The notes under the pieces are model-generated. The model saw only the letters and a list, made by a program, of their open reading frames with translations. It had not been told where the DNA came from and did no database searches. Positions 3,813 to 32,856 of a DNA stretch of 64,000 bases are shown piece after piece. The translations under genes were made by a program, and so were the position numbers. Every line of letters starts with the position of its first letter. Positions within the stretch are counted from its first letter, which is position 1. The stretch covers positions 60,278 through 124,277 of the forward strand of contig DBYS01000016.1 of the NCBI GenBank assembly GCA_002310195.1. The letters are read 5' to 3'. This DNA comes from Bacteroidales bacterium UBA1180 (lineage in GTDB: Bacteria > Bacteroidota > Bacteroidia > Bacteroidales > Paludibacteraceae).

Positions 3813-4361
3813 ATGGAAGTTCTGAAAACTTCGATAGAAGGGCTGCTGATCATCGAACCCCGGGTGTTCAACGACGCCCGCGGTTTCTTCCTGGAGTCCT
3901 ACAACGAGCAGCGTTACCGCGAGGCAGGGATTGACGTGCAATTTGTGCAGGACAACCTGTCTGCCTCTTGCTACGGCGTGGTGCGCGGACTGCATTTTCA
4001 ACGACCGCCGTTCACCCAGGCCAAGCTTGTGACCTGTATCGAAGGTGCGGTACTCGATGTGGCTGTCGATCTGCGCAGCGGCAGTCCTACCTTCGGGCAG
4101 CATGTGGCGGTCGAGCTCACTGCTGATAACCACCGGCAGTTCTTCATTCCCAAGGGCTTTGCCCACGGCTTCAGCGTGCTCAGCGAACATGCGCTGTTCA
4201 GCTACAAGTGCGACGAGCTCTATCACCCCGAGGCCGACGGCGGTATCTTGCTCTCCGATCCTGCGCTCGCTATCGATTGGCGTATACCTGAGGCCGAACG
4301 CATCCTCTCGGACAAAGATACCCGTCATCCCTTACTCAAAGATTTAGGCTACACGTTATGA
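3813..4361 (+). CDS. rfbC: dTDP-4-dehydrorhamnose 3,5-epimerase
   Basis: RmlC cupin signature: FNDARGFF, RGLHFQ, and FIPKGFAHGF. Confidence 0.9.
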   Translation: MEVLKTSIEGLLIIEPRVFNDARGFFLESYNEQRYREAGIDVQFVQDNLSASCYGVVRGLHFQRPPFTQAKLVTCIEGAVLDVAVDLRSGSPTFGQHVAVELTADNHRQFFIPKGFAHGFSVLSEHALFSYKCDELYHPEADGGILLSDPALAIDWRIPEAERILSDKDTRHPLLKDLGYTL

Positions 4362-5323
4362 CTATTCTGATCACCGGCGCCAACGGCCAGTTAGGCAACG
4401 AGATGCGTATCCTTTCGGCCGCGCATCCCAAGCACACATACCTCTTCAGCGACGTTATTGTTCCTGAGGCGAGTCCTGTTGCTATCCATCCGCTCGACAT
4501 TACCGACGAAGCGGCTGTCTGCGGGTTTGTTGGCGAGCATTGCGTGGATGTCATCGTCAATTGTGCTGCCTATACCAATGTCGATAAGGCTGAGCAGGAC
4601 GAACCCACCGCGCTGCGCATCAATGCCGATGCCGTGGCCAACCTCGCGCGTAGCGGCGCACGCATTATTCATATCAGCACCGATTACGTCTTCTCCGGCG
4701 ATGAGCACTTGCCCTGCCGCGAAGATGATCCTGTCGCTCCGCGTACTGCCTATGGCCGCACGAAGCTGGCAGGCGAACAGGCCTTGCTCGCAGAGCAGCC
4801 TGATGCGATTATTTTCCGCACGGCGTGGCTGTATTCGGAGTTCGGCAACAATTTCGTCAAGACGATGCTCCGCCTCGGTCAAACCAAACAGGAGATCGGT
4901 GTCGTCTATGACCAGATCGGCACTCCCACCTACGCCCTCGATCTTGCCCGGGCGATCTTTGCGGCCATCGAGTCGGCCGCCAATGCCGACGGCTCATTCA
5001 ACCCCAACGGCTGGCACGCCGGTATCTATCACTTTACGGATGAAGGTGTCTGCTCGTGGTACGATTTTACCCTCGCCATCCACGAGATCTATAATTCTAT
5101 CCTTGCCCATAGCGCTCAGCCTGCCACCAATCCAAAGGATTGTTGTGCCTCGCCTGCCGAGCCTATACGCTGCAAGGTCCGTCCTATCCTGAGCGAGGAG
5201 TACCAGTACCTCACTCCCCGTCCCCACTATTCTGTACTAAACAAGGCGAAAGTCCGTCAGACTTTCGCCCTCACTATCCCCCACTGGCGCGATTCCCTCA
5301 TCGCCTGCCTGCGTAACATGTAA
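4358..5323 (+). CDS. rfbD: dTDP-4-dehydrorhamnose reductase
   Basis: Has the Rossmann motif ILITGANGQLG, the STDYVF motif and the PRPHYSVL C-terminal motif. It overlaps rfbC by 4 nt (ATGA). A roughly 20-aa insertion sits near the C-terminus. Confidence 0.85.
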   Translation: MTILITGANGQLGNEMRILSAAHPKHTYLFSDVIVPEASPVAIHPLDITDEAAVCGFVGEHCVDVIVNCAAYTNVDKAEQDEPTALRINADAVANLARSGARIIHISTDYVFSGDEHLPCREDDPVAPRTAYGRTKLAGEQALLAEQPDAIIFRTAWLYSEFGNNFVKTMLRLGQTKQEIGVVYDQIGTPTYALDLARAIFAAIESAANADGSFNPNGWHAGIYHFTDEGVCSWYDFTLAIHEIYNSILAHSAQPATNPKDCCASPAEPIRCKVRPILSEEYQYLTPRPHYSVLNKAKVRQTFALTIPHWRDSLIACLRNM

Positions 5324-7218: not shown

Positions 7219-7221
7219 ACG

Positions 7222-8565
7222 TTATTTATGCAAAGGGAATTTATATGCCAGCCAGCCCATGATCGCGGCTATGACAGCCGGAAAGACGGAGAACAGGCAC
7301 CAAATCATCATCTGCACAGACTGCTCGTCGGTGATCGAGACGATCGTTTCGCCGGTGGTCATATCCTGATGTGACACCAGTCCAGCCGCACCGAGCAGCA
7401 AGGCGATCAGACTGCCGGAGATAGCTCCTCCGAACTTCTGTGCCATCGTACCAGACGAGAAGATCAGACCGGTTGAGGATGTGCCGTTTTTCTCGGTAGC
7501 ATAGTCCGCCACATCGGCGTACATTGACCAGATCAGCGGGGAGTAGAGACCGACGCCAATAGACGTGAGCACCGCCACAGCCAGCATGAGCCAGATATAC
7601 GAAGCGTCCATCGGGATGAAGAAGTACGCCACGGAAAACACCAGGCAGATCACCGACGCCCATACGAACGCCATACGCTTGGAGCCCACCCAACGGGTGA
7701 ACGCGGGGCTGAGCGCACCGAACACCATACAGGTCACCTCGTTGAAGGCGATGAACACCGTATAGTTGATGATCAGCTTGCCCACGGTAATATCGCCGCC
7801 AAGGCAGTACATGATCATGTAGCCCACCACAGCGTAACGGAAGCCGTTGAAGAAATTGGTGCAGAACGCCACGAGGGTCATATACACCCACGGGCAGTTG
7901 CGCACGAGATCGGCGAACTGCTTGAACTCGAACTTCTCCGCACGTATCGGTTCGTGCCGCTCACGGGTAAGCAGACCGCAAGCGAGGGTCATCATGGCAG
8001 CTATCAGTCCAAACACCGCGCCAACCACAGCGTACTGATGCTGCGCCGAGCCGCCGACCATCCGCTGCACATACGGGAAAGCGATCATCGTGACGAACCC
8101 CATGGCATAGGCGCCGACCATACGGAAAGCGGAGAACTGGTTCTTCTCATTGTCATCGGTGGTCATCACTCCGAGCAGCGAGCCGTAAGGCACGTTGACA
8201 GCGGTATAGACAGCCATCATCAGCAGATAGAGCGTATAAGCGTAGATGCGCTTGCCCACAGGTCCGAGATCGGGCGTGAACAGCAGCAGGGCGAAGATCA
8301 GTCCGAACGGTATAGACCCGAAGATCAGCCACGGCCGATAGGTGCCCCAGCGCGAACGGGTGCGGTCAGCCAGACTGCCCATGAGCGGGTCGGTGAACAC
8401 ATCGAAGATTCGCGCTGCGAGCATCAACGCCGCCGCGTCGGCAAACGTCAGGCCGAACACATTCGTGAAGTACAGCGGGAAAGCGACTGACATAATCTTC
8501 CAGGTGATGCCGCCGGAAGCGGCATCACCCAGAGCATAACCTATCTTTTCGCGAAACGGAGCCAT
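7222..8565 (-). CDS. Glycoside-pentoside-hexuronide (GPH):cation symporter family MFS transporter
   Basis: A 12-TM-like hydrophobic profile with the GPH-type N-terminus KIGYALGDAASGG and the motif DRTRSRWG(T)YRPW. Confidence 0.85.
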   Translation of the reverse strand: MAPFREKIGYALGDAASGGITWKIMSVAFPLYFTNVFGLTFADAAALMLAARIFDVFTDPLMGSLADRTRSRWGTYRPWLIFGSIPFGLIFALLLFTPDLGPVGKRIYAYTLYLLMMAVYTAVNVPYGSLLGVMTTDDNEKNQFSAFRMVGAYAMGFVTMIAFPYVQRMVGGSAQHQYAVVGAVFGLIAAMMTLACGLLTRERHEPIRAEKFEFKQFADLVRNCPWVYMTLVAFCTNFFNGFRYAVVGYMIMYCLGGDITVGKLIINYTVFIAFNEVTCMVFGALSPAFTRWVGSKRMAFVWASVICLVFSVAYFFIPMDASYIWLMLAVAVLTSIGVGLYSPLIWSMYADVADYATEKNGTSSTGLIFSSGTMAQKFGGAISGSLIALLLGAAGLVSHQDMTTGETIVSITDEQSVQMMIWCLFSVFPAVIAAIMGWLAYKFPLHK

Positions 8566-9797
8566 TACTTGTAGGTAATCTTAGTAACATTCAATCCGAA
8601 TCCGACAACGGACATTGCACCGGTCTCGTCAACGAGAGCCTTACAAGCATCGGTGTACTCGAACGGATAGGGGTTAGCCTGCGATTCCATCCCGTCAACC
8701 TGCGGCAGCAGGTCACCGTTCCACCACGGCGTAGTAACACGCAAAGCGTGGTATTCTGCATCAATGACGCTGTAGTAAACGAAGATTATAGCACCAATAG
8801 GCACTGCTGCCATAACGGAAGACTCGACCTTAACCAGATCTGCATCCCAGGCAATATCCACCGAACCACTCCAAATAATGGTCTCGGTGCTAACCTGCGC
8901 AATAACCTCGTAAACCAGACCTGCTTCGGTAACGAACTTAACCTGCGTGCCGTCCTGGTTGAGCATCGACAATGTGTACTTGCCTTCGTCAACAGCCGGA
9001 GCAGTGAACGTAACCGACGAAGCAGTAGCGGTAACAGAGGTGACCACATTCTCGCCCAACTTGACAGAAGCCACGTTCTGCAGGTTCAGGCCCGTGATGG
9101 TCCATTCCTCACCGGGGATGAACTCGGCATAGCCGTCGAGCACCGTAGCTTCGTTGTAGATATTGAGCACATCGGCACCGTAGAGCTTACCGTCAGCATC
9201 TCTGAGGCGGATATGGTATGCGCCGTTAGGCAGAGCAGGCACAGTAAACGTCAGTGCATCCGCAGTCTGCGAGTCAGGATTGACCTCCATAGCTATATCG
9301 ATACCGAACAGGTCATTGCACAGGGCAACAGATTTGACCATGTTCATGTTCTGACCGTCGATGGTGACAACCATAGCCGGAGCGGCGTGGCGTCCAATAG
9401 CGGGAGCGGCTGAGTACGGGTCGTTGTCATAAGGATTGACCACCACCGTACCGGTACGTGTCGTACGTTTGCCGGCATCGGTCACCGCTTCGATAGTGAG
9501 CGCATACGTACCTGCGTAGAAGCACATATTGATCTTCTCGCCCGTATAAACGAGTTCACCGTCGAGGTACCAGTTGATCTTAGTATAAGCCGAAGGAGTG
9601 ACGGTAACAGAATCATACAACGGGGTATCCGGGTTAGCCAGTAGGTAGGTAAACGAACCTGTACCGGACTCGTTGTACGGCCGGAGGATCAGCGGCGCAT
9701 CGTCCGGCGACTGCGTGTCGAACGGCTCCTGCGGGTTACAGCCGCTGAACACGAACATCGTAGCAAGAGCTGCTATATATAAAAACTTCGTTTTCAT
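8565..9797 (-). CDS. Cell-surface lipoprotein with PKD-like and IPT/TIG-like domains, in the SusE/F-position glycan-binding slot
   Basis: Has a lipoprotein signal (FVFSGC) and lies immediately downstream of SusD. The beta-sandwich-like repeats were judged by eye. Its stop codon overlaps the MFS start codon (TAATG). Confidence 0.65.
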   Translation of the reverse strand: MKTKFLYIAALATMFVFSGCNPQEPFDTQSPDDAPLILRPYNESGTGSFTYLLANPDTPLYDSVTVTPSAYTKINWYLDGELVYTGEKINMCFYAGTYALTIEAVTDAGKRTTRTGTVVVNPYDNDPYSAAPAIGRHAAPAMVVTIDGQNMNMVKSVALCNDLFGIDIAMEVNPDSQTADALTFTVPALPNGAYHIRLRDADGKLYGADVLNIYNEATVLDGYAEFIPGEEWTITGLNLQNVASVKLGENVVTSVTATASSVTFTAPAVDEGKYTLSMLNQDGTQVKFVTEAGLVYEVIAQVSTETIIWSGSVDIAWDADLVKVESSVMAAVPIGAIIFVYYSVIDAEYHALRVTTPWWNGDLLPQVDGMESQANPYPFEYTDACKALVDETGAMSVVGFGLNVTKITYK

Positions 9798-9849
9798 AAT
9801 ATTTCAAATTTCAAATTTATGGTTTCAAATTTCCAATAGCCGCAGGGCG

Positions 9850-11532
9850 TTATTTCACATCCCACCAGAGGCGAGCGTGCCATGAGTAATCACCTACCCG
9901 ATCTTTAGCCTCCTGATAAGCATCCTTGCTGTAGGTCTCCTCCTTGATAGGATAGCACAGGCGTACGGGGATGTCCGCTCCGTCGATGAGCGGGTTCTTG
10001 GTGTTCGGTGCCTGGAGCTTAGGATAGTCCGCACGACGTACGTTTGCCCACGCCTCAGCAGGGTTGTGGAAATGCAGAATCCAAGCCTGGGTGTTGATCT
10101 GACTCTTCTGCTGTTCTGCCACTGCGCCGAAGGCTACAGAGGTCTCAGCGATGTACGCAGCGAACTCGGCGTCGGTAACAACGGAGCAGCCGTAGTAAGT
10201 AGCCAGGAGGTCCATGGCGGCACGGATACCGCTCTCATAGAAATCCTTGGCATTGTCGGCCGTCCATCCCAACACAGCAGCCTCAGCACGCAGGAAGCAT
10301 ACCTCAGCGTAAGTCATCAGAATGCCAGGGTTATCAGAACGCAGGAAATTGCCGGCGAGCTTAGGCATCAACCAACGGGGATTGGAACCCGGGTTGTAGT
10401 CAGGATGTGCGGCCTGGATCTCGGCAATCTGCGTAGCCAGCGGGCTGCCGAGTATGTCGGTGTACGAAGGCCAGTTGTCCCAGGAGAACTCACCCGGAGC
10501 GATCATGTAGATGACATCGGCCGACGGGTTGGCAGCTTGCGTAGCCAGCACGGCGTCAGTGACGTCAATACGTCCGTCACCGGTAGAGATAGACATAAAG
10601 TCGTCGATATAGAACCGGCAGAGACGTGTAGTACGTGGGTCGTTATTCTTGTAGAGCTGCTCCCAGAAGGTCTGGCAGAGGTACGAGGGGTTATTGGCAG
10701 GGTCGTTGCCATAGAAATACTTAGCCATAGCATTGCCACGGATATCCCTGTAAGCCTCCTGACCGAAGCTGTAGCTGACATTCATGTGCTTGATGCACGC
10801 ATCGTCCGTACCGCTCACCATCACACCATCCTCCAGTGCTGCAACGAACTCGGTCTTAGCCAGATCGGGCAACACGTCGGACAGACGCATAGCATAACGC
10901 AGACGCAACGAGTTGGCGAATGTAATCCACTCGGCGATATTACCACCGAACAGCGGATCGCTGGTGATTGCCTTGGCGTTGATGTCGAACAGACCGGCAG
11001 CTTCCTTCAACTCGCTGAAGAAGAAGCGGTAAAGATCCTCCTGCTTGTCGTATTTCGGCTTGGAGTTACCGGTGATGTAACCCAGACCTGCCTCGGTGAA
11101 CGGTATATCGCCGTAATAATCCGTCAGCAGTGCGCCAACATATACGCGGAAGATACGCAGCGCAGCGTAAACGTTCACCTGCGTGCCATCGTCCTTGGTA
11201 GCCTCGATGGCATCCGTGAGGTTACGCATAGCACCCGGGTAGAGATTGTTCCAGGGACGGGACATCTCGTTGTCGTCCATACGATGCTGGCCGCCGTAGT
11301 TAGTAGTGTTCCAGCAACCCATGAGGTGCTGCGTGAACGCGTACGTATAGAGTCGATGAACATCGACATAGTTCATATCGCCGTAGATCTGCAACTCAGC
11401 ATAAGAGAGCTGCGACGACGGGTTAACGTGATCCGCTTTGGTGGGATCAGTATTGATCTCCTCGTAAATCTCGTCAGAGCAAGAAGCGAGAACAGCCGCA
11501 AAAGCGAGCAGTATAAATAATTTCTTTTTCAT
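9850..11532 (-). CDS. susD: SusD/RagB family nutrient-binding outer-membrane lipoprotein
   Basis: Has a lipoprotein signal (VLASC), SusD-like TPR-type helices, and a position directly after SusC. Confidence 0.9.
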   Translation of the reverse strand: MKKKLFILLAFAAVLASCSDEIYEEINTDPTKADHVNPSSQLSYAELQIYGDMNYVDVHRLYTYAFTQHLMGCWNTTNYGGQHRMDDNEMSRPWNNLYPGAMRNLTDAIEATKDDGTQVNVYAALRIFRVYVGALLTDYYGDIPFTEAGLGYITGNSKPKYDKQEDLYRFFFSELKEAAGLFDINAKAITSDPLFGGNIAEWITFANSLRLRYAMRLSDVLPDLAKTEFVAALEDGVMVSGTDDACIKHMNVSYSFGQEAYRDIRGNAMAKYFYGNDPANNPSYLCQTFWEQLYKNNDPRTTRLCRFYIDDFMSISTGDGRIDVTDAVLATQAANPSADVIYMIAPGEFSWDNWPSYTDILGSPLATQIAEIQAAHPDYNPGSNPRWLMPKLAGNFLRSDNPGILMTYAEVCFLRAEAAVLGWTADNAKDFYESGIRAAMDLLATYYGCSVVTDAEFAAYIAETSVAFGAVAEQQKSQINTQAWILHFHNPAEAWANVRRADYPKLQAPNTKNPLIDGADIPVRLCYPIKEETYSKDAYQEAKDRVGDYSWHARLWWDVK

Positions 11533-11553
11533 AATAGTGACAGATTTACAATA

Positions 11554-14500
11554 TTAGAATTTGAGATTGAAGTTTAGACCGTAGCTACGACGGCTCGGCA
11601 GCGAACCGTACTCCAAGCCAAGGCCGGATGTATTGTACTGTGCATCGGGGTCGATATCCTTGATGTTCTTCCACACGATGAAGGGGTTACGAGCCACGAA
11701 ACTGATGCTCACGTTCTTGAGCACTCCCCCCTTGTCGAGCCACTCCTTGGGGAAGGTAACGCCAAAGGTAAGTTCGCGGCACTTGATGTACGAGTTGTCG
11801 TAGATGAACAGTTCCGGCGACTTACGCGACACTTCCATCCAGTAATCTTCGGGGTTGATGTAGATGTCGTTTTCGCGATATGTACCGTCGCCATTGTCGA
11901 TGACGCCGTCAACGAGGTAACCGCCTGTAGCGACCCATCCGCTGGTAACGCCTGCAGCCTTGCGCGCCTCCTCGGAAGCATACCACTCGGCACGTCCAGC
12001 CAGGGTCTCGATAGCCTTACCGGTCTCATACGACGAGCGCTCGGACATCGAGAAGATATCAGCACCGACCTTAACGTCGAACAATGCGGTAAGGGTAAAC
12101 ATCTTATAGCGGAGCGTAGTGTTCAGACCACCGGTCCACTTCCATTGTGCATTGCCGAGCACTTTGTTCTCCGTAGTAAACGCAGGCAGACCGGTCAAGC
12201 CGTCAACGATAACACGTCCGTCGTCGGTGCGCGCGAGCGCCGGGCCGCAGATGGCACCGTACTCCTCACCCTCGCGAGCGGAAACATATACATTACACCA
12301 GGTAGCCTTAGCCAACTCGAGCTCGGTCGTTCCCTCGGTAAGAGAAAGCACCTTGTTGGTGTTCTTCGACCAGTTGATGTTCAAGTCCCAACTGAAATCT
12401 TTCGTTTGCACAAGGCGCGAACCGAAGGTAATCTCAAAACCTTGGTTAAGGATCTCACCGGCGTTGATCATACGGTACTCGTAGCCGCTGGTAGGCGATG
12501 TAGCCATACCGATGATCTGATCGCGTGACTTCTGGTGATAGAACGTGAAGTCGAGGCTGATACGGCTGTTGCACCACTTGGTTTCAAAACCTGTCTCGAT
12601 CGAACGGGTACGTGTCGGTTTGAGGTCGGCGTTCGGCACTGTATTGCCATACACCGAACCGATGGTGTAACCCGGATAACCGAACTGCGACTTGGCATAA
12701 CGCAGGCTGAGTTGGTACGGATCGGTATCGCTACCTACCTCTGCCCAGCTCAAGCGAACCTTACCGTAAGGCAGCACCTTGCGGTTGCCCTTGATGAGCT
12801 CGGAGAATACAAATGAACCGCTGACCGAAGGATAGACGTACAGGTTCTTGCCGCTAGCAAGGGTCGAAGACTTATCGCCACGAACTGTAGCATCCAAGTA
12901 CAACATGTGACGCCAACCGAGGTTAACCGAACCGAAGACGGAAACGATACGTTTGTTGTAGGTCGATTCCTCAACCGATTGCTCCTCGAAGCTCGACATA
13001 GCCACGACCTCGCGGATACCCATGTCCGTGCCGGTATTGACCGTTGTAGCGTTGTGTACGTTGTAGATGTTAGCACCGGCAGTGGCGGTGAAGTCGAAGT
13101 CACCCCAGTTGTCGTTGTATATACCGAGGAACTCGGCATTGATCATGCGATTGTTGAAATACATATTCTGCAAGCGTCCGGACTCGTAACCCGGAGTAGT
13201 CGGGTACTTGAAATCCGAGAACTCAAAGCGGTTGAGCTCGGCACCTACCGTAGCCTGAATCTTCAACTGCGGGATGATATTGTACACGATCTTGCCGTTC
13301 ATACGGAGCAGATCCTTGTAGGACTGGTTCTTGTTTTTGTTAATATCCCAGTACGGGTTGACATTGTACGGGTCCATACCATTCCAGTTCTGGTACTCGC
13401 CTTCGGCCGTCTCGTAGTTTCTCAACCACTCCTGATTGTAGGTTGTAGCGAGCGTCATAAGGTTTTTGCCAACGTTCGATTTGTCGTCACCCAGAGCGGG
13501 ACGGTTGGTTACATCCTCGTGGGTGAAGTTAGCCGTGAAATCCAGGTCAACCGGTCCGAGGCTCGTGTTGGCACGCAGGTTCAGCGTGTTACGGCTCATT
13601 TTCGAGTTAGGCAGGATATCCTTGTTACGCATATCGGTGTAAGCGAAGCGGATACCCGTGCGGCCAGTGTTCATCGATACGACAGCCGTGTTCGTAGCAG
13701 TAAGGCCGAGTTGGAAGAAGTTAGCCGTATTGTTCGGAATGATTTGGAACGGATGTTCCTGGCCGTCGAAGTAACGAAGCATCAAGCCATTGTCAGCCTT
13801 GGGTCCCCAGGACTTGTTGGTATTGCTTACGGCATCGATATTGTACTGGCCGTCGGAACCCATACCATACACTTGCTGTACATTGTCCCATTTGCTAAGT
13901 TGGGAATCGAAGGTAAGCGTACCGTTGTACTCGACCGACCACTTGGCATCGCCTGTATCGGCTTTCTTGGTAGTGATGAGGATCACGCCGTGACTGGCTC
14001 GGCTACCGTAGAGTGCAGCAGCAGCCGGACCCTTGAGGACAGACATCGACTCGATATCATCCGGGTTGATGGCAGATATACCGTCACCGAGGTCGTAACC
14101 TCCTTCCGTGCCGGCCGAACCGAAGTTCGTATTATCCATAGGCACACCGTCGATCACGTAGAGCGGCTGGTTGTTGCCGGTCATCTCCGTTGTACCACGT
14201 AGCATGACGCGCGTAGAACCGGCAGGGCCACCGGCCGTACCTTGTACAACCAAACCGGCCACACGTCCTGCGAGCGAGTTGGCCACATTGGTCTCCTTGG
14301 CTTTGGTGAGATCTTCGCCCTTCACCTCGCCCACTTCGTAACCAAGCGCTTTGCGGTCACGCTTGATACCCATGGCGGTAACAACCACCTCGGAGAGCAC
14401 TTCGGTGTCCTCAGACATCGTTACGTTGATAACATTGCTCGTAACGGCAATCGTCTGAGCACTGTAACCCATGTACGAGAACTCCAGTTCGTCACCGATA

Positions 14501-14706
14501 TTCGCCTGGATGGAATACTGTCCGTCCATGTCGGTAATCGTACCACGGGTGGTTCCTTTGACGAGCACACTGGCGCCGATGAGCGGACCATCGGCATCCC
14601 CAACAACGCCCGTCACAATGTTTTGTGCAAATGCCCAACCCGTAGAACTGATGATCAACGCTACGAGCAGGAGCGCACGCTTGCACTGTTTAAGTGAGTG
14701 TCTCAT
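11554..14706 (-). CDS. susC: SusC/RagA family TonB-linked outer-membrane transporter
   Basis: Has an N-terminal carboxypeptidase-regulatory-like domain (GVVGDADGPLIGASVLVKGT), a plug domain (GSRASHGVILITTKK) and a C-terminal barrel ending in NFNLKF. Confidence 0.95.
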   Translation of the reverse strand: MRHSLKQCKRALLLVALIISSTGWAFAQNIVTGVVGDADGPLIGASVLVKGTTRGTITDMDGQYSIQANIGDELEFSYMGYSAQTIAVTSNVINVTMSEDTEVLSEVVVTAMGIKRDRKALGYEVGEVKGEDLTKAKETNVANSLAGRVAGLVVQGTAGGPAGSTRVMLRGTTEMTGNNQPLYVIDGVPMDNTNFGSAGTEGGYDLGDGISAINPDDIESMSVLKGPAAAALYGSRASHGVILITTKKADTGDAKWSVEYNGTLTFDSQLSKWDNVQQVYGMGSDGQYNIDAVSNTNKSWGPKADNGLMLRYFDGQEHPFQIIPNNTANFFQLGLTATNTAVVSMNTGRTGIRFAYTDMRNKDILPNSKMSRNTLNLRANTSLGPVDLDFTANFTHEDVTNRPALGDDKSNVGKNLMTLATTYNQEWLRNYETAEGEYQNWNGMDPYNVNPYWDINKNKNQSYKDLLRMNGKIVYNIIPQLKIQATVGAELNRFEFSDFKYPTTPGYESGRLQNMYFNNRMINAEFLGIYNDNWGDFDFTATAGANIYNVHNATTVNTGTDMGIREVVAMSSFEEQSVEESTYNKRIVSVFGSVNLGWRHMLYLDATVRGDKSSTLASGKNLYVYPSVSGSFVFSELIKGNRKVLPYGKVRLSWAEVGSDTDPYQLSLRYAKSQFGYPGYTIGSVYGNTVPNADLKPTRTRSIETGFETKWCNSRISLDFTFYHQKSRDQIIGMATSPTSGYEYRMINAGEILNQGFEITFGSRLVQTKDFSWDLNINWSKNTNKVLSLTEGTTELELAKATWCNVYVSAREGEEYGAICGPALARTDDGRVIVDGLTGLPAFTTENKVLGNAQWKWTGGLNTTLRYKMFTLTALFDVKVGADIFSMSERSSYETGKAIETLAGRAEWYASEEARKAAGVTSGWVATGGYLVDGVIDNGDGTYRENDIYINPEDYWMEVSRKSPELFIYDNSYIKCRELTFGVTFPKEWLDKGGVLKNVSISFVARNPFIVWKNIKDIDPDAQYNTSGLGLEYGSLPSRRSYGLNFNLKF

Positions 14707-14734
14707 GCTTAATTGATTTTATGTTGAGTTATTA

Positions 14735-15982
14735 TTATTTGCGAGAGGATTCGGGCGCTGAATCGTAGATCGATTGCAGCGTGTAGTTCGGGTCGTTGTT
14801 CTCCCACGAGTCAATCATCGCCCGTACGGCCTGTTCGCCATTGCCGATGAACCGTCCTGTAGCATGATCAATCACACCGAAGCCGTCGTTGCCGGCTTTG
14901 CTATTGCCATTATCCCAATACAGGGCAGATATACGGCGGTCGCGCATAGCCTTGCATATATAGCGGAAGTAATAGAGCCGGAACTCCTCGTCGGCCTTGC
15001 TTGCACGACGCACTGCGCCGAACTCGCCGAAATACACAGGTACACCGCGGCGGATATACATGTTGAACAGGCGGTTGAGCATACCTACGTATGCCTCCTC
15101 ACCTACTCCGGGCACGACATCTTTGCCGGTGTGTCCCCACTCGTTGTACTTAGCCGAACCGGCATAATCCCACGGATCGTAACTGTGTACAGCCACCATC
15201 AGGCGGTTGGGTACAACATCTTCGGGCAGGACGAGATTCTCGACCGTTAGATCGGGGTTACATACGTAGCCCGGCACGCCGATGTAGCGTGTCTCGTTCT
15301 TGCCACCGGCAGCGCGGATAGCATCGACGCATACCTGGTTCCACTCGTTGAGCACGCGGTATTGTGCGCCACCGTCCCTGCGGTTGTTGCCATTGCCCCA
15401 GTCGCCGTCCTGTATCTCGTTGAGCGTCTCGAACACAAGCCACTCGCCATCGTTGGCAAAGCGCTTGCCGATCTGCAACCAGATCATGGTCAGTTCCTGC
15501 TTGATGAGCTGATTGCGCTCTTCGCTGGCAACAGCAGCCGGCAGATCGAGCCAATGGGAGCCCTTGCTGGGCGTGTCAGCCGCACCAAAACCGTCGTGGT
15601 GGATATTGATGATCACGATGAGTCCGGCCTTGTGGGCCATATGAACGAGTTCGTCGACACGATCCAACCAGCCGCGCTCGATAGCGTACGTAGGAGCATT
15701 GCCGATGTGTCCCATCCATGTTACAGGGATACGCACCGAACGGAAGCCGGCCTTAGCCAAACCGTTGAAGGTCTGCTGCGTAGCCGCTTTGTTGCCCCAG
15801 CCAGTCTCGTACGAACAGCCGTCATAGTGGGCGTCCATCTGATTGCCAAGGTTCCAGCCGATGCCCATCGACATGCCGAACTGAACGGCCTCGTTGTCCA
15901 TCGGACGCCGTTTCTTCTCCTGTGCATTGCAAGCAGTAAGAACTACAAGCAAAGCAACAAATAATGCTGATAATTTCTTCAT
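14735..15982 (-). CDS. Glycoside hydrolase family 5 endo-beta-1,4-glucanase-like lipoprotein
   Basis: Has a lipoprotein signal (VVLTAC), the motifs NIHHD and FETLNE (putative acid/base Glu), and FGEFGA (putative nucleophile Glu). Confidence 0.85.
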   Translation of the reverse strand: MKKLSALFVALLVVLTACNAQEKKRRPMDNEAVQFGMSMGIGWNLGNQMDAHYDGCSYETGWGNKAATQQTFNGLAKAGFRSVRIPVTWMGHIGNAPTYAIERGWLDRVDELVHMAHKAGLIVIINIHHDGFGAADTPSKGSHWLDLPAAVASEERNQLIKQELTMIWLQIGKRFANDGEWLVFETLNEIQDGDWGNGNNRRDGGAQYRVLNEWNQVCVDAIRAAGGKNETRYIGVPGYVCNPDLTVENLVLPEDVVPNRLMVAVHSYDPWDYAGSAKYNEWGHTGKDVVPGVGEEAYVGMLNRLFNMYIRRGVPVYFGEFGAVRRASKADEEFRLYYFRYICKAMRDRRISALYWDNGNSKAGNDGFGVIDHATGRFIGNGEQAVRAMIDSWENNDPNYTLQSIYDSAPESSRK

Positions 15983-16013
15983 GGCATTAATATAATATTT
16001 TTAGAGTTTTACC

Positions 16014-18467
16014 TTAAAGTGTTACCGTTATTTCGTGGTGACCGGGAGCGTACGGCAGGATGGTCGGGCGGTCGGGATGCTGATGACCGTTCGGGTTCTT
16101 GACGGTGATGACATACTCGGCGTCACGCCACTTGCGCGTAACCTTGTACTCCTTAAGATCAGACGGAATGCACGGATTGACTTCGAGTCCTTCGTACGTC
16201 GGCCGTATACCGAGGATATACTGACTGACTGTCAGCCAGTTCCAGGCAGCAGTACCGGTGAGCCAGGAGTTCTTGCCCTCGCCGGGCTTGGCAGCTTCCT
16301 TGCCGGCCACCATCTGACAATAGACGTAAGGCTCAACCTTGTGCAGATCCTGATTCTCGATCCATGCGGGAGTAATCTTGCGGTAGAGGTTCCACGCGTC
16401 GTTGCCGCGTCCGGCAAGTGCCTGAGCGATGATCACCCACGGGTTGTTGTGGCAGAAGATGCCACCGTTCTCCTTGTAACCTGCAGGATAGGTCGATTGC
16501 TCGCCAAGCTCGATGTGATAGGTCGTGTAAGCCGGCCAGTTAAGAACCATGCCGTGCTCGCTGTCCAGCAGTCGTGCAGCGCTGTCAAGAGCCTGCTCGG
16601 GCAAGCCTTGCTCCGCACCGATACGCGCCATAGCACACCATCCCTGGCTCTCGATGAAGATCTTGCCTTCAGCGTTTTCGTTGGAGCCGACCTTGTTACC
16701 ATAATAATCGTACGCGCGCAGGTACCACTCGCCGTCCCAGCCAAACTGCTCGACGGCTTGACACATGGCATTGATATGCTGCTCGGCGCGGTCGGCCTCG
16801 CCAGACAGGTTGCGTGTGCGGCAAAGCTCCACATACTGGCGTCCGCAGAACACGAACAAGCCGGCAATCATCAGCGATTCAGCCTTACTGCCCTCGGTCT
16901 TGTTGCCCGTGGTCTGGAACGACTCGTTGGGATCGCTGGAGAAACAGTTGAGATTCAGACAATCGTTCCAGTCGGCACGTCCGATAAGCGGCAGCCCGTG
17001 AGGACCGAGGTTCTCCACTACATGGTTGAAACTGATGCGCAGGTGCTCCATCAGAGGCACTTCGCTGCCGGGCTGATTGTCCCAAGGCACAAGCTCGTCA
17101 AGGATGGAGAAGTCACCCGTTTCGCGGATATATGCCGTAGTGCCGAAGATGAGCCACATAGGATCGTCGTTGAAGCCTCCGCCTATATCGTTGTTGCCAC
17201 GCTTGGTGAGCGGCTGATACTGATGGTAACAACCGCCGTCAGGGAACTGCGTAGAGGCTATATCGATAATGCGCTGGCGCGCGCGTGAAGGAATCTGATG
17301 AACGAATCCAACCAAATCTTGGTTGGAATCCCTAAATCCCATACCGCGGCCTATGCCCGACTCGAAGAACGATGCCGAACGGCTCATGCAGAACGTGATC
17401 ATGCATTGGTACTGATTCCAGATGTTCACCATTCGGTTGAGGCGCTCGTCGCTGCTCTCAACGCTATACTTGCTGAGCAACTCGTCCCACAACGCACGAA
17501 GTTCGGCAAACACTGCGTCCACTGCCTCGACAGAAGCAAAGCGGCTGATCACCTCATGCGCGCGCGCCTTGTTAATAATGTGATGATCCTTGTCGCCAAG
17601 GCTGGTGAGTTCACCACGATTGGCGGCAAACTTCTGATCTTCGGGGTTCTCCTCGTAGCCAAGGATAAAGATGAAATCGCGACTCTCGCCGGCCTTGAGC
17701 TCCACTTCGATATAATGGCTTGCGATCGGACTCCAGCCGTGTGCAAGACTGTCAGTGGAATGGCCGTTGAGCACAGCCTGCGGTTCGGAAAGCTCGTTGT
17801 ACAAGCCGACAAACGACTCGCGGTCGGTATCATAACCCTGAACGGGGCTGTTGACGGAATAGTAAGCGTAATGATTGCGGCGCTCCTTGTATTCGGTCTT
17901 ATGGTAGAGGGCCGTGAAATCTGCGGCTTGCTCAATCTCCACCTCACCGGTAGAAAGGTTGCGCTGGAAGTTCTCACCGTCCGTGGCACCGTTCCAGAGG
18001 CACCACTCGGTATAACTGAAGAGCTTGATGCTCTTTGACCCGTCACCAAGATTGGTGAGCGTCAGCTTCTGGATCTCAGCTTTTACGCCCAGGGGAACAA
18101 AGTGCAGCACGCTCGCGCGAACATTGTTCTTCACACCCGTGATGCGCGTATAGTTCAAGCCGTGACGGCACTCATAGTTGTCAAGCGGTGTCTTGCAAGG
18201 TTTCCAGCCAGGGTTCCAAACAACATCACCGTCTTTGAGATAAAAGTAGCGTCCGCCATTGTCCATCGGCACGCTGTTGTAGCGATAACGGGTGATGCGG
18301 CGGAACTTGGCGTCCTTGTAGAAGTTATAACCTCCGGCGGTATTGCTGATCAGACCGAAGAAATCTTCATTGCCGAGATAATTGATCCAAGGGAAAGGTG
18401 TCTTGGGATTGGTGATGACATATTCGCGATTGGCGTCATCAAAATGTCCGTATTGATTGTGTGTCAT
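16014..18467 (-). CDS. GH94 cellobiose/cellodextrin phosphorylase (cytoplasmic)
   Basis: The start is set at [32 protein letters not shown], the canonical N-terminus of cellobiose phosphorylases. It also has the RADWNDCLN catalytic region, is about 817 aa long, and has no signal peptide. Confidence 0.9.
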
Positions 18468-18491
18468 GATACAGTGATTCAAAAAACAATG

Positions 18492-18523
18492 CAAAGGTAC
18501 TGCTTTTAATTGACATATACAAA
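18492..18523 (-). promoter_or_regulatory. Promoter of the PUL1 operon (-7 TACCTTTG is the reverse complement of 18492-18499; -33 TTTG is the reverse complement of 18520-18523)
   Basis: Consensus match with a 20-nt spacer, about 25 nt upstream of the GH94 ATG. Confidence 0.6.
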
Positions 18524-18573
18524 TACTTTTCCGACCGTTTTTATGCGTTTTTTGTAAAATAGTGCAAAAAACG

Positions 18574-18605
18574 TTTGCATATATCATTTTTTTTCATTAC
18601 TTTTG
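18574..18605 (+). promoter_or_regulatory. Promoter of the AraC-family regulator (-33 TTTG 18574-18577, -7 TACTTTTG 18598-18605)
   Basis: Consensus match with a 20-nt spacer, divergent from the PUL1 promoter. Confidence 0.6.
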
Positions 18606-18655
18606 TGTCGTACAACATATTTTGGTCGCAGACTATCGGCCATTTGCTATCAGCC

Positions 18656-19513
18656 ATGAAAGAATCATTCACCGAAATTACCCGCCTTGAACCCCTCGAT
18701 GTTTTCTATGTAGGCGAGCGCATAAAGACGTACTTTGAATACCCGGCACACTGCCACGAAGTATATGAACTGAACTTCGTGGAGAACGGTGCAGGCGTTG
18801 TACGTACCGTAGGCGACAGCAGGGAAACGATTGGTAATCTGGATCTTGTGTTTATCACAGGCAGCAAACTTGTGCATGTATGGGAACAAGGTACATGTCC
18901 GGAACAGGAGATCTACGAAATCACGGTACATATCGATCCCGATACGTTTCACGGTCCGATGATCGACAAACGCGCTTTTGCGTCAATACGAAGGATGTTT
19001 GAACGTGCCCAGCGCGGCCTGGCTTTTCCTGAGGCGGCGATACAGATTGTGCATGACGACATCATCAACCTGGCGCACAGCACTGATAGTTTTGCGTCGG
19101 TTATACGCTTATTCAACCTACTCTACCGTTTGTCGCTGGTAGAGAATGCGCGGGAGCTGTCGTCGCAATCGTTCATCAATGCCGAGGAGGGCAACGAAGA
19201 TGAGCGTGTGCAGCAAGTGAAGGAGTATATAGCCGCCAATTACATGCACGATATTTGTCTGCAAGACCTTGCGGACATCGCCTGTATGTCAGCCGATTCG
19301 TTCTCGCGGTTCTTCCACAACCGCACCGGCCGCACGCCGAACCGTTACCTGATCGACTACCGCCTAGGTATAGCTGCGCGAATGCTGCTGACCACGAAAC
19401 AATCCGTTTCGGAGATAGGCTATGCGTGCGGTTTCAACACGCTCAGTCACTTCAACAGGCTGTTCCGTGAGTCGAAAGGTTGCACGCCATCGGAGTTCCG
19501 CGAGCAGTTCTGA
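18656..19513 (+). CDS. AraC/XylS family transcriptional regulator (N-terminal cupin, C-terminal dual HTH)
   Basis: The C-terminus YACGFNTLSHFNRLFRESKGCTPSEFR is a classical AraC HTH. The start is set at MKESFTEI, downstream of the mapped promoter. Confidence 0.85.
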   Translation: MKESFTEITRLEPLDVFYVGERIKTYFEYPAHCHEVYELNFVENGAGVVRTVGDSRETIGNLDLVFITGSKLVHVWEQGTCPEQEIYEITVHIDPDTFHGPMIDKRAFASIRRMFERAQRGLAFPEAAIQIVHDDIINLAHSTDSFASVIRLFNLLYRLSLVENARELSSQSFINAEEGNEDERVQQVKEYIAANYMHDICLQDLADIACMSADSFSRFFHNRTGRTPNRYLIDYRLGIAARMLLTTKQSVSEIGYACGFNTLSHFNRLFRESKGCTPSEFREQF

Positions 19514-19725: not shown

Positions 19726-19757
19726 TTTGCATATATCAAATATTTTTTGTAACTTTG
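19726..19757 (+). promoter_or_regulatory. Promoter (-33 TTTG 19726-19729, -7 TAACTTTG 19750-19757) driving the leader and the OMP/S41 genes
   Basis: Consensus match with a 20-nt spacer. Confidence 0.6.
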
Positions 19758-19761
19758 CAAG

Positions 19762-19880
19762 CGCGTTCGGTAAACCGCGCTAACAGATGCCGCTCAGCGG
19801 CATAAAGCGCACGGTTGCCTCCGCGCTCCCCACCACAACAAGTTGTGTCGGGGGCCCCACATAAAACAACCTAATTCAAC
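19762..19880 (+). promoter_or_regulatory. Structured 5' leader RNA, copy B of a paralogous leader family
   Basis: Contains the hairpins GCGCG-N10-CGCGC (19761-19780), ATGCCGC-TCA-GCGGCAT (19787-19803) and CACAA-CAAG-TTGTG (19834-19847), then GTGTCGGGGGCCCCA (19845-19859). It is block-wise homologous to the reverse complement of 32667-32787. Confidence 0.55.
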
Positions 19881-20762
19881 ATGAACAATATAACCCATTT
19901 TAGGCGTGGTATAGGGCGAACACTCGGCGTGTTGGGCATCGTTGTGTCCACAACTGTTGTGCTCACAATGAGTGCATTGCCGATGTACGCGCAAGGGCAG
20001 AAGACCAACAACCGCGGTATGTACACCGCTCCTGCTCCTGTGCAACGCAGTGAGATCCGTTCGGGTCGTAGCGGCGTGGAGTATGAGAAAGTGCGCCGCA
20101 CGCGGCGCGGTGCCCAGTACAAGAGCCACCGCTACAGCGATATTGACCGTTCGGCGCACCCTGGCATATGGACGCTGGGCGCAACAATCGGCGCGACGTA
20201 CAACTGGCAGACACGCGAAGCAGGTTACGCGTACGACATGTCGTTCAAAGGCGGCTGGGGCGCCAACGCCGGTGTAACAGCCACATTCAAAGCATTGGAA
20301 TGGCTGAGCATCCGCGCCGATGTGCTGTTCACACAGAAGAACTTCGGCATGGAGCGAATGCAGCCCGAACTACGCGAGCAGAACATCCACTCCGACTATA
20401 TGTGCCATTACCTGCAGATCCCCGTGATGGCCGACTGGACGTTCGGCGGAGAGATAAAGAGCCATATCTACACCGGCGCTTACGGCGGAGCATGGCTCGG
20501 CGGCAACGTCAGCCGCAAGACGCTGCTGGTGACTGACGAATACCGCGCGCGGTACGAATTTACGCCCGAGGATAACCGCATAGACGGCGGTCTGGTAGGC
20601 GGTCTGGGCGTGTCGTGGGACCCGATGCCATACCTGAGAATAGGTTTTGAGGCACTGTTCTACTACAGCATGGCGAACACCGTCAAACGCCAAGCGCTGA
20701 TGAACGATACGCGATATAACAACACCGTAGTGGTGGGAGTGTCAACGAAATACGTATTCTGA
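19881..20762 (+). CDS. Outer-membrane beta-barrel protein (OMP_b-brl-like) with a long basic N-terminal extension
   Basis: Has a signal-like segment (LTMSALPMYAQGQ), alternating amphipathic beta-strands and a C-terminal aromatic residue (TKYVF). Confidence 0.65.
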   Translation: MNNITHFRRGIGRTLGVLGIVVSTTVVLTMSALPMYAQGQKTNNRGMYTAPAPVQRSEIRSGRSGVEYEKVRRTRRGAQYKSHRYSDIDRSAHPGIWTLGATIGATYNWQTREAGYAYDMSFKGGWGANAGVTATFKALEWLSIRADVLFTQKNFGMERMQPELREQNIHSDYMCHYLQIPVMADWTFGGEIKSHIYTGAYGGAWLGGNVSRKTLLVTDEYRARYEFTPEDNRIDGGLVGGLGVSWDPMPYLRIGFEALFYYSMANTVKRQALMNDTRYNNTVVVGVSTKYVF

Positions 20763-20763
20763 T

Positions 20764-21990
20764 ATGAAACATAAACTACTCTATATAATCGCAATAAGCC
20801 TGCTGGTGACCGGTTGCCGTCAGAAAGGTGACATCTACGTCGATCCGAACGACCCGATGAACCTCAACTACACGAGTTATGCCAAGCAGTTCGACATATT
20901 CTGGCAAGGCATGAACACGTACTATGTGTTCTGGAGCGAGGATGAAACCGACTGGGATGACGTATATACGCGCCTTAAACCTAAGTTCGACGCACTGGAT
21001 GAAGCCTACAAAGCCGACGGCAGTGTACCTGACTCGCTGACATTCATCGCGCTCTATCAGGACGCTACATCGAGCCTGATTGACCATCACCTGGTTCTTA
21101 GGCTGCGCGACGTTCATACCGACCAGCTCTATGTGTACAGTCCGGGATCGGAAGAGGTAAAGAGCCGCGAATATGTGGCCGGACAGAAGTACGGCAAGAA
21201 AGTGATGAAAGAGGAGATACAGAAATGCATCGATCAGAAACTGCTTGATGCCGGCACATGGGGTGAGAAAGGCGATGATGCAAACTTCTTTGGCATCCGT
21301 ACGCTTGACGACGGGCGGAAAGTTGCGTACCTGTGGCAGAGTTCGTACAACATGCTCGCATCGTTGAAGGAAGAAGGCGAAACCGACGAAGAACGCGTGT
21401 ACATCAACAATATAGAGGCCTGGATGGATATGTGCTTGACCGAAACACGGCTCGCAGGTATCATCCTCGATAACCGTTGCAACCGCGGCGGCAAGGTAGC
21501 TGACCTTGAGCTGGTGGTAGGCTCATTCATCAACGAAAAAGTACACTACGCCGACCTGCGCTACAAGGAAGGTCCGGGGCGTTACGACTACACCGACTGG
21601 ATGCCCGCGTACGTTGAGCCAGCCGCCAAACGGCGTGACATAGAGACTGAGAACATTCCGTACATCGTACTGACGAACGCATATAGTATAAGCATGGCTG
21701 AGACATCTTCGGAGATCATCAAGAAGCTGCCTACCGGCCGAATGATCGGCGAGCGTACGTACGGCGCACACGGACAACTGATGCCCTACAACACGTACTT
21801 CCACGACGGCACGTTCGGCGACATCAACAACGGCAAGCACTATGTGTACACATCCAGTCTGCAAGTGCGGTTCGTGGATGACGGCATACTTGAGGGCGTG
21901 GGTATAACGCCAACAAAAGCCATCTACCAAGCGGAAGACGGCTATATTGGCGCGATGAACAAAGCGCTGGATTACATCAAGGCGTACTAA
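20764..21990 (+). CDS. S41-family (tail-specific protease-like) peptidase lipoprotein
   Basis: Has a lipoprotein signal (LLVTGC), ILDNRCNRGG (the DxRxNxGG-type motif) and VLTNAYSISMAE (the region of the putative catalytic Ser). Confidence 0.65.
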   Translation: MKHKLLYIIAISLLVTGCRQKGDIYVDPNDPMNLNYTSYAKQFDIFWQGMNTYYVFWSEDETDWDDVYTRLKPKFDALDEAYKADGSVPDSLTFIALYQDATSSLIDHHLVLRLRDVHTDQLYVYSPGSEEVKSREYVAGQKYGKKVMKEEIQKCIDQKLLDAGTWGEKGDDANFFGIRTLDDGRKVAYLWQSSYNMLASLKEEGETDEERVYINNIEAWMDMCLTETRLAGIILDNRCNRGGKVADLELVVGSFINEKVHYADLRYKEGPGRYDYTDWMPAYVEPAAKRRDIETENIPYIVLTNAYSISMAETSSEIIKKLPTGRMIGERTYGAHGQLMPYNTYFHDGTFGDINNGKHYVYTSSLQVRFVDDGILEGVGITPTKAIYQAEDGYIGAMNKALDYIKAY

Positions 21991-32240: not shown

Positions 32241-32666
32241 CTATTCCGTCGGCATCGGCGGCAAGCTTTGCTCAAACGGATCGCCCGTTTGCGGCCGTGT
32301 GCCCACGCTGTAGATCGAGTCCACCACGTACTGGCTGTTACCGCGCCAGGGCAGCGTACCGAGGTAACGCTTCCAATGCAACTTGATCTGACGGCCGGAG
32401 GCATTATCAATCTGCTGGGCTATACGCTCATCCTCCACCGAGAACTTAAACTCGTTGGATTGAATGGTCGAAGAGGTGTTCTTCGAATTGTAACCCGATT
32501 GAATCATCTTACCTTCGTAAGTCTTGAAGATAAAGCCTTCACGCTGGAAGTAGTTGATGTCACCCTCGTTCACGCCTGTGCTGTACACAAACCAGAACTT
32601 ATAAAACAAGAAGATACCGAGTACTACAATGAGTACAGCGGATACGATTGTAATAACTTTTTTCAT
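32241..32666 (-). CDS. Hypothetical N-terminally membrane-anchored small protein (141 aa)
   Basis: The start is set at MKKVITIVSAVLIVVLGIFLF, downstream of the mapped promoter and leader. I recognise no family. Confidence 0.6.
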   Translation of the reverse strand: MKKVITIVSAVLIVVLGIFLFYKFWFVYSTGVNEGDINYFQREGFIFKTYEGKMIQSGYNSKNTSSTIQSNEFKFSVEDERIAQQIDNASGRQIKLHWKRYLGTLPWRGNSQYVVDSIYSVGTRPQTGDPFEQSLPPMPTE

Positions 32667-32787
32667 GTCACAACAATATATTTTGGGGTCCCCGATGTAA
32701 CCGTAGGTTGCGTTGGGGAGAGCCGAGGTTGCGGTCGCTTTATGGTGCAGAGCACCATCCGCGCGAGCCACATACCGAAGGCGACTG
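32667..32787 (-). promoter_or_regulatory. Structured 5' leader RNA, copy A of the paralogous leader family
   Basis: On the minus strand it contains TTCGGTA (reverse complement of 32773-32779), the hairpin ATGGTGC-TCT-GCACCAT (32742-32758), CTCCCCA (32714-32720) and TCGGGGACCCCA (32684-32695). Confidence 0.55.
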
Positions 32788-32819
32788 CAAAGATACAAAA
32801 AAAATCCCACATTTGCAAA
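32788..32819 (-). promoter_or_regulatory. Promoter (-7 TATCTTTG is the reverse complement of 32788-32795; -33 TTTG is the reverse complement of 32816-32819)
   Basis: Consensus match with a 20-nt spacer. Confidence 0.6.
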
Positions 32820-32856
32820 TTTTGTGAGACTTTTTTTGAGAATATCTATATTTTTA

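Follow-up and report, generated by a model that had tools for sequence, protein, structure and literature searches.

What two related, structured sequences are doing between the promoters and the start codons of two transcription units is the question raised by the window analysed here, a stretch of 64,000 nucleotides (64 kb) from Bacteroidales bacterium UBA1180 (contig DBYS01000016.1). A sequence-only reading had described them as two paralogous 5' leaders carrying an RNA under structural selection, and not a DNA site. Our analysis suggests, with a probability of about 0.6, that the two leaders are copies of a non-autonomous, structure-dependent insertion element resembling the Rickettsia palindromic elements (RPEs), repetitive extragenic palindromes (REPs) and miniature inverted-repeat transposable elements (MITEs), which uses its fold for propagation and whose active end is the one formed by helix P1. 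Selfish insertional DNA is the most likely identity of the repeat, as opposed to a regulator dedicated to envelope genes. Positions follow the numbering of the 64-kb window, and L-numbers denote loci collected from metagenome contigs and relatives. Promoters and transcription starts were inferred from consensus boxes (the Bacteroides promoter consensus is TTTG / TAnnTTTG), and all RNA-level statements are predictions.

The two copies, B on the plus strand and A on the minus strand, were both located and align with each other across the entire element. Their parts are as follows:

19726..19757, plus strand: promoter of copy B, read from the sequence, with a -33 box TTTG at 19726-19729 and a -7 box TAACTTTG at 19750-19757
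19761-19859, plus strand: copy B of the element, starting 3 nt past the -7 box; the ATG of the outer-membrane protein (OMP) gene follows at 19881
19761..19826, plus strand: 5' domain of copy B, from the minimum free energy fold, the consensus structure and covariation; model match of 103.8 bits
19761-19765 : 19822-19826, plus strand: helix P1 of copy B
19769-19781 : 19806-19819, plus strand: long arm P2 of copy B
19787-19793 : 19797-19803, plus strand: hairpin P3 of copy B, with the junction CATAAAGCG directly 3' of it
19827..19859, plus strand: 3' domain of copy B, from the fold and family covariation
19827-19831 (UCCCC) : 19850-19854 (GGGGG), plus strand: helix P4 of copy B, enclosing a variable hairpin at 19834-19838 : 19843-19847
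19855-19859, plus strand: tail CCCCA of copy B
19860..19880, plus strand: native A-rich leader of the OMP gene, 21 nt, from alignment with L001, L004, L158 and L160
32788..32819, minus strand: promoter of copy A, with a -33 box TTTG at 32819-32816 and a -7 box TATCTTTG at 32795-32788
32684..32784, minus strand: copy A of the element, built of helices P1-P4 like copy B, starting 3 nt past the -7 box; the ATG follows at 32666

The boxes of the copy B promoter, at -33 (19726) and -7 (19750), directly precede the leader as the sequence-only reading had it, and the ordered blocks that it had recognised in both leaders also hold: the pair CATAAAGCG..CTCCCCA is present at exactly two places in the window and in none of 100 shuffles. 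Its central hairpin, ATGCCGC/GCGGCAT in copy B and ATGGTGC/GCACCAT in copy A, was confirmed, with two base pairs changed on both strands. The pairing proposed for the 5' end, GCGC with the GCGC of AAAGCGC, had to be replaced; the family instead pairs the first CGC(G/C) with the (C/G)GC past the long arm. In copy A, P1 is only GCC:GGC, and the native leader between the element and the ATG is 18 nt. Two covariance models, R1 (104 and 91 bits for copies B and A) and R2 with filters off (96 and 87 bits; 87.3 bits for copy A), find exactly these two copies and no further one in the 64 kb. Compared with shuffled sequences, copy B folds with z = -4.1, and copy A is less clear at z = -2.1. The predicted fold of copy B leaves the 25 nt directly 5' of the ATG unpaired, while copy A shows a predicted pairing to the start region that is not common to copy B. 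As a separate observation, the copy A promoter overlaps a terminator-like hairpin (CUCACA...UGUGGG, then U8) directly after cinA (32800-32840, minus strand), so that one sequence would end one transcript and start the next.

The two copies belong to a large family. A strict three-block pattern, searched in 185,579 species genomes, gave 14 loci in six metagenome-assembled genomes (MAGs) of Bacteroidales/Paludibacteraceae, with 1-4 loci per MAG; its other 17 matches lie in unrelated phyla, a number compatible with chance, and L014, the one of them scanned with the model, gave no match. A second pattern, restricted to the middle and 3' blocks, yielded at least 120 loci in metagenome contigs. The search with covariance models, which the sequence-only reading had proposed as a check, returned many homologues whose structure covaries: R1, built from 16 seed copies, recognises at least 144 copies in rumen-type Bacteroidales contigs, with scores from 118 down to about 30 bits, and within the strict-pattern MAGs a covariance model finds more copies than the pattern itself. 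These family counts rest on loci collected with core-anchored patterns, and the MAGs of the hosts are fragmentary. Within the Bacteroidales, the family has multiplied in a narrow rumen-type group, namely Paludibacteraceae and relatives.

The fold is maintained throughout the family. The consensus of the 16 seed copies has four helices in which 20 of 33 pairs are changed on both sides. In an alignment of 115 sequences fitted to the model, 95% of the cells are paired and 29 of the 33 pairs change on both sides; none of 500 shuffles reached these values, and no slid register came close. Copies range from 95 to 148 nt in length, with a median of 106 nt, and share the conserved core TCGCGTTCGGCAA ... 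TGCCTC(C/G)GCTCTCCCCA ... TCGGGGACCCC. Two arms, one formed by distal P2 with P3 and the other by distal P4, are free in sequence and length with their pairing kept, and the inner hairpin of P4 in particular varies greatly in length and sequence across the family and is still paired. A leader peptide was considered and rejected. Open reading frames (ORFs) of 25-31 codons do start at the ATG in the GATG block of both window copies; a 1-nt indel shifts the frames of the common blocks, and no reading frame is kept open across the 144 copies.

Comparison with relatives that carry the same genes, obtained via protein orthologues, bears on how the window copies came to lie where they are. The genes concerned are:

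19881-20762, plus strand: outer-membrane beta-barrel protein (OMP_b-brl_2, Pfam PF13568), downstream of copy B
20764-21990, plus strand: S41 peptidase (Pfam PF03572), downstream of copy B; the gene pair is kept in element-free relatives
32241..32666, minus strand: conserved 141-aa protein, function unassigned, downstream of copy A and followed by an acyl-CoA ligase, CoaX and BamG

The OMP protein places its host among uncultured Paludibacteraceae. At the OMP/S41 locus, L162 and L163, strains of 99% identity to the window, are the only ones with the element, whereas six orthologous lineages (L001/2, L004, L006, L158, L159 and L160/1; 48-72% amino acid identity) lack it and keep a very similar promoter and a leader of 27-28 nt. 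In copy B, the 21 nt of native leader and the 3 nt before the element together make 24 nt, a length close to that of these element-free leaders. The copy A locus gives the same picture, since 12 loci encoding the 141-aa protein at 86-87% amino acid identity have the promoter and a 30-nt leader without the element. With the promoter kept and the element absent in relatives, both window copies are lineage-specific insertions between the transcription start and the native leader. Among the pattern-selected loci there are no empty sites, as expected from how those loci were chosen. Two side observations concern these sites. The element of L162/L163 (217-315) differs from window positions 19761-19859 at one base, ACAAC to ACTAC in the inner stem of P4, a change that breaks a pair and is uncompensated. 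At the copy A locus, the leader of the element-free L165 (1170-1200) and L173 starts with TCGCGTTTG right after the -7 box, which agrees with the first 9 nt of the element 5' end (TCGCGTTCG) at 8 positions; this likeness could be chance, insertion microhomology or a footprint of the element.

The copies of the family have varied surroundings, and their junctions are precise at one end only. For the first 105 copies, both flanking genes lie on the same strand as the element in 32 and both on the opposite strand in 18, and they are divergent in 20 and convergent in five. Neighbouring genes are mutually unrelated; judged by eye on their N-terminal residues, they include secG, rsgA, rpsB and a DUF2723-type protein. 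The P1 end lies within about 3 nt of a functional boundary in about 73 of 142 copies: about 20 transcription starts (a -7 box and 2-3 nt, then the element), 17 same-strand stop codons, about 10 opposite-strand ATGs, eight 3' ends of transfer RNA (tRNA) or transfer-messenger RNA (tmRNA) genes on the same strand, and 18 tRNA/tmRNA 5' ends on the opposite strand. Five copies reading TACTTTTGCCAT, the reverse complement of ATG, were counted as opposite-strand ATGs and not as transcription starts. In the mirror test, the P4 end is flush in 10 of 143 copies, and neither tRNAs nor transcription starts are among its boundaries; the distance from the P4 end to a downstream ATG is typically 20-30 nt, as in an ordinary leader. 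In two loci (L097 and L049) the element fills the entire space from a stop codon to the next ATG.

The RNA genes illustrate the one-sidedness best. All 26 copies that abut a tRNA or tmRNA gene do so with the P1 end, almost always at 0-3 nt, and in the 18 that stand back-to-back with a 5' end the antisense strand of the element is the 5' leader of the tRNA or tmRNA. In L063 two antisense copies form the spacers within a tRNA operon. In L032 (6672-7318) and L106 (2864-3484) the tmRNA gene has a sense copy on either side (promoter, element, 14 nt, tmRNA, element), and in L059 and L101 the 5' end of the tmRNA gene adjoins an antisense copy. The sense and antisense copies at the tmRNA gene point to independent arrivals at one gene.

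Among the opposite-strand ATGs, we observed a family of small proteins of 126-130 aa, starting with MAKV(E/N/Q)W.. or MAKATV.., whose ATG is flush with an antisense copy (L088, L111, L050, L149 and L104); copies beside these proteins have a distinct tail, ACCCTC..GAGGG. A phage origin was considered for the element and set aside: the core pattern has no match in the IMG/VR viral contigs, and PHROG gave none for two MAKV... proteins (127-130 aa) and one 153-aa protein whose ATGs abut antisense copies.

Some copies have even entered protein-coding genes. In the dapB genes of L076 and L094 the element lies in frame, over 34 and 35 codons, and is read as VAFGN...ASALPKNWKFSGTP. Among 24 close DapB orthologues, 13 have the insert, with differing arm sequences, 10 lack it and one has an unrelated segment there. 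In the DNA, the insert takes the place of about 45 nt from a native loop beside the conserved GTTGW motif. Further in-frame copies are found in L092/L093, within a 412-aa ORF, and in L150. The in-frame copies show a behaviour like that of RPEs, which is not homology to RPEs. In one DapB orthologue (P0038; alignment A10, columns 195-225) a second insertion of about 15 aa was seen inside the element-derived segment; the inserted DapB loop itself keeps changing.

Is the conserved structure then that of an RNA? In the model-fitted alignment, G-U pairs occupy 31 and A-C mismatches 69 of 3269 cells, so the pairs are almost purely Watson-Crick. Sorting by the co-transcribed strand does not change this, with 14 G-U versus 24 A-C in sense copies and 7 versus 9 in antisense copies. 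G-U is favoured over A-C in neither transcribed subset, and there is accordingly no sign of selection on one RNA strand per locus. In each of the 16 seed copies the antisense strand has the more stable fold; assignment of a strand by folding energy or by wobble counts was given up, as neither clearly marks one functional RNA strand. Of the proposal of an RNA under structural selection, the compensatory structure thus stands (95% paired, 29 of 33 pairs), and the argument for RNA over a DNA site fails for want of a wobble bias. Compensation restricted to Watson-Crick pairs fits a fold of single-stranded DNA, use of both strands or, conceivably, templated correction of a quasi-palindrome.

Several observations point to recent spread of the element. 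By broad criteria for dispersed repeats (MITE-, RPE- or REP-like), it is multi-copy, small and non-coding, with presence/absence differences at three loci. Copies 93-99% identical occur in dissimilar flanks, such as a 94% pair beside tRNA-Leu and tRNA-Glu. L062 carries five copies on 5 kb (1036-1427, 4170-4609), three of them in a head-to-tail array with a conserved spacer of about 42 nt (ACACGTAATGCTAT..TTAATAAGCGGTAATCC); copies 1 and 3 of this locus have identical 5' domains and unrelated P4 hairpins. P4 modules are duplicated in L086, L042 and L106. The orthologous loci L032 and L106 agree at 93-97% in their flanks but at only about 50% in the 5' domain of the copy after the tmRNA.

We therefore favour the insertion-element reading, in which the fold would be needed for propagation, as folded single-stranded DNA or as an intermediate of either strand handled by an enzyme supplied in trans, and would not serve a regulatory job at each locus. 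The P1 end might be active through precise insertion at the edges of functional units or, alternatively, through repeated adjacent deletions that stop only at essential sequence; the loss of about 45 nt in dapB would fit the deletion alternative. As the window copies lie between the transcription start and the native leader, the mRNAs should carry a stable 5'-terminal structure, which may alter mRNA stability as a side effect. On this reading the window leaders are not ligand- or signal-responsive switches.

A number of points weigh against this reading. Transposase, integrase and reverse transcriptase were absent from the 29 window ORFs scanned, and none was linked to the family. In the alignments, neither of the two ends, TCGCGTTCGG... 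and ...TCGGGGACCCC(A/G), is an inverted copy of the other, so that terminal inverted repeats are lacking, and upstream positions -12 to -1 show no target consensus beyond the promoter subclass. Flanking direct repeats of at least 7 nt accompany 25 of 139 copies versus 10 of 133 controls, and most copies have none. Without terminal inverted repeats, with few candidate duplications and with no target consensus, the element is not a canonical MITE. In the orthologous pair L097/L049 the element is 97% identical and the coding flanks 83-89%, and in L091/L054 (flanks 82-85% identical) the element lies at the same site with core blocks 100% identical and arms that cannot be aligned; both cases fit purifying selection in place, i.e. 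a host function. The search patterns demanded the core blocks CATAAAGCG, GCCTCSGCTCTCCCCA and TCGGGG, whose conservation therefore stems partly from the collection; the 5' block TCGCGTTCGGCAA was required by neither pattern, and its positions are 84-99% conserved except for the first T (79%). Finally, a P1 end flush with RNA ends (transcription starts and tRNA ends) would also be expected of an RNA-processing module.

The flanks were examined for further traces of insertion. Candidate target-site duplications are a 17-nt direct repeat flush with both ends in L100 and repeats of 12-14 nt in L140 and L089. Inverted repeats between the flanks, which would form a P0 helix, show no excess over the control; with this and the weak excess of direct repeats, neither a general target-site duplication nor a flank helix P0 was retained. 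A separate observation is that in four antisense-transcribed loci (L140, L089, L118 and L100) the element is flanked by two reversed -7 boxes (TGCAAAGGTAC), one 0-3 nt from P1 and the other about 15 nt from P4, the downstream box being preceded by a shared tail, ..CTTTGCGG. These double boxes could reflect promoter duplication at insertion.

The alternative that survives best, rather unlikely in our estimation, is that the fold on either strand turns the P1 boundary into an RNA end, in the manner of a punctuation mark. By this account the module would either cleave itself, as a ribozyme of a new class, or attract RNase P, RNase Z or a different endonuclease. It would free tRNAs, tmRNA and mRNAs with set ends or cap them with a terminal helix that protects them, and would have spread through its usefulness in compact operons. 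It draws on the coincidence of P1 with RNA termini (the approximately 20 transcription starts, eight tRNA/tmRNA 3' ends and 18 opposite-strand 5' ends, almost all at 0-3 nt), on the two elements spanning an entire stop-to-ATG gap (L097 and L049), on the leader-like spacing of 20-30 nt from P4 to ATG, and on the strong conservation of the core together with the 97% identical orthologous pair. Theta ribozymes at the 3' ends of phage tRNAs offer a precedent (PMC10879173). However, a strand-specific fold should tolerate G-U on its own strand, which is not seen even when copies are sorted by transcribed strand; copies translated in frame in DapB and other ORFs cannot act as cleavage signals; in ordinary operons, neither stop nor start codons mark RNA ends; and no ribozyme or RNase P substrate in Rfam was matched, nor could the hepatitis delta virus (HDV) fold be threaded by hand.

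The bolder idea that the element is a self-propagating, mobile punctuation mark, which as a ribozyme of a new class or as a portable substrate of RNase P/Z cuts out tRNAs, tmRNA and cistrons, appears distinctly improbable. tRNAs do punctuate mitochondrial transcripts, and such a mark, if real, would explain why one end is flush with tRNA ends, transcription starts, stop codons and start codons alike.

Very unlikely is a family of trans-acting small RNAs (sRNAs), with C-rich seeds (CUCCCCA and ACCCC) freed from tRNA/tmRNA co-transcripts or mRNA 5' ends and directed at G-rich targets. Several paralogues per genome, including the L062 tandem array, the conserved C-rich blocks and copies that follow a tRNA and are closed by a terminator (L022) would suit it, and multi-copy C-rich sRNAs are known in Firmicutes. 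Yet about one third of the copies are oriented so that only their antisense strand is co-transcribed, most have no terminator of their own, some lie in frame inside ORFs, and the first CCCC block is sequestered in P4.

The remaining proposal, a cis-regulatory leader (a riboswitch or a protein- or sRNA-responsive element) controlling envelope genes by a signal, as the sequence-only reading implied, is barely credible: both window copies are indeed in sense orientation between promoter and ATG, the structure covaries, the lack of an Rfam match would make it new and the genes after copy B are envelope genes, but copies occur in both orientations, beside unrelated neighbours and inside ORFs, orthologous leaders of the same genes are empty, neither window leader has a terminator-like site, no conserved helix sequesters the start codon, and the arms, which a binding pocket would need, differ completely between copies, only helix-proximal blocks being conserved.

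Known families were compared with the element, which was not found described in Rfam 15 or in the literature searched. For both window copies, Rfam 15 gave nothing at the gathering threshold and only chance-level matches of 12-18 bits at E <= 10, and for 12 loci with other subfamilies it gave only tRNA and tmRNA. A known RNA family was rejected on these gathering and permissive scans, and the description of the element as unclassified holds.

RPEs are the closest in behaviour. Rickettsia felis has 728 RPEs, of which 85 lie inside ORFs and three in RNA genes (PMC1166351). These are likewise short, non-coding, structured, multi-copy repeats that invade intergenic DNA, the surroundings of RNA genes and, in frame, protein genes (PMC1166351). 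The present element does so in DapB, the 412-aa ORF and L150, and beside tRNA and tmRNA genes. It differs in having a two-domain fold with a conserved core, where an RPE is a single palindrome, and in its host, free-living rumen anaerobes of the Bacteroidota, for which a sequence relationship is not expected. We know of no mobilising enzyme for RPEs and of no description in them of a one-sided flush junction, seen here in about half of the copies.

With REP/BIME, ERIC, BOX and Correia-type repeats and with MITEs, the element shares small size, structure, location in intergenic and transcribed regions in either orientation, a modular build (here P4 duplications and tandem arrays) and presence/absence polymorphism. 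Possible side effects on mRNA stability are known for these repeats. Unlike MITEs, it has no terminal inverted repeats and no clear fixed-length target-site duplication (there are a few repeats of 12-17 nt), and unlike REPs it has no GTAG head. Neither a RAYT gene, the cognate partner of REPs, nor a transposase was identified, although no search of whole host genomes was made.

Integron attC sites and the ends of IS200/IS605 elements, DNA sites that are recognised in folded single-stranded form, resemble it in their conserved ends and variable central part with pairing kept, in Watson-Crick covariation without wobble bias, in the absence of a target-site duplication from most copies, and in one end often being flush with an upstream stop codon (17 copies of the element). 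In contrast, neither an integrase nor TnpA was present in the loci examined. For attC, the neighbours here are syntenic housekeeping genes, tRNAs and tmRNA and not cassettes, and the R/L core-site motifs are lacking; an integron attC was rejected on these neighbours and because no integrase is among the window proteins scanned. An IS200/IS605-derived palindrome-associated transposable element (PATE) was also rejected, as the expected target of 4-5 nt 5' of the left end has no counterpart in an upstream consensus.

HDV-like theta ribozymes cleave within 1 nt of phage tRNA 3' ends (PMC10879173), and eight copies of the element likewise have their 5' boundary about 1 nt or less from the 3' end of a tRNA or tmRNA. 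The element differs in its P1 of 3-6 bp versus about 7 bp, in lacking any Rfam HDV or IMG/VR match, and in the larger number of copies (18) that abut tRNA 5' ends on the opposite strand. Threading by hand onto an HDV-like or theta fold fails: besides the short P1, the ACCCC tail has no 5' partner for P2, no nested double pseudoknot could be threaded, and no J4/2 catalytic C context was found.

The genes around the window copies bear on one further claim, that both downstream genes encode envelope proteins. This is clear for copy B and applies only loosely to copy A, where the 141-aa protein, which has no Pfam or NCBIfam match, precedes the acyl-CoA ligase, CoaX and BamG. Just upstream of copy B (5437-19513) we observed a polysaccharide utilisation locus of cellulose/cellodextrin type, which also encodes a major facilitator superfamily (MFS) sugar transporter and a TIG-domain protein. 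The features of this locus, and the sole Rfam match of the window at the gathering threshold, are:

5437-7218: glycoside hydrolase family 9 (GH9) protein
9850-11532: SusD-like protein
11554-14706: 1050-aa ORF, probably SusC
14735-15982: GH5 cellulase
16014-18587: GH94 phosphorylase
18575/18656-19513: divergent AraC regulator
50952-51059, minus strand: Bacteroidales small signal recognition particle (SRP) RNA (RF04183, 105.5 bits)

The case carries a caution, as two paralogous, covarying, promoter-proximal structures resembled a new riboswitch until the wider family was surveyed, and covariation alone is not proof of RNA function. A test for wobble bias and a survey of orientation and context are cheap discriminators between RNA function and a mobile repeat. 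The element will confuse gene callers through extended or false ORFs and mislead riboswitch and sRNA screens in rumen MAGs, and the covariance model can be used for masking it. The precision of one end points to an insertion or deletion mechanism that senses the edges of functional units, or to an activity that defines RNA ends. If the insertion-element reading is true, a structured repeat is abundant in rumen Paludibacteraceae and remodels 5' leaders, the precursors of tRNAs and tmRNA, junctions within operons and even protein loops, as in DapB.

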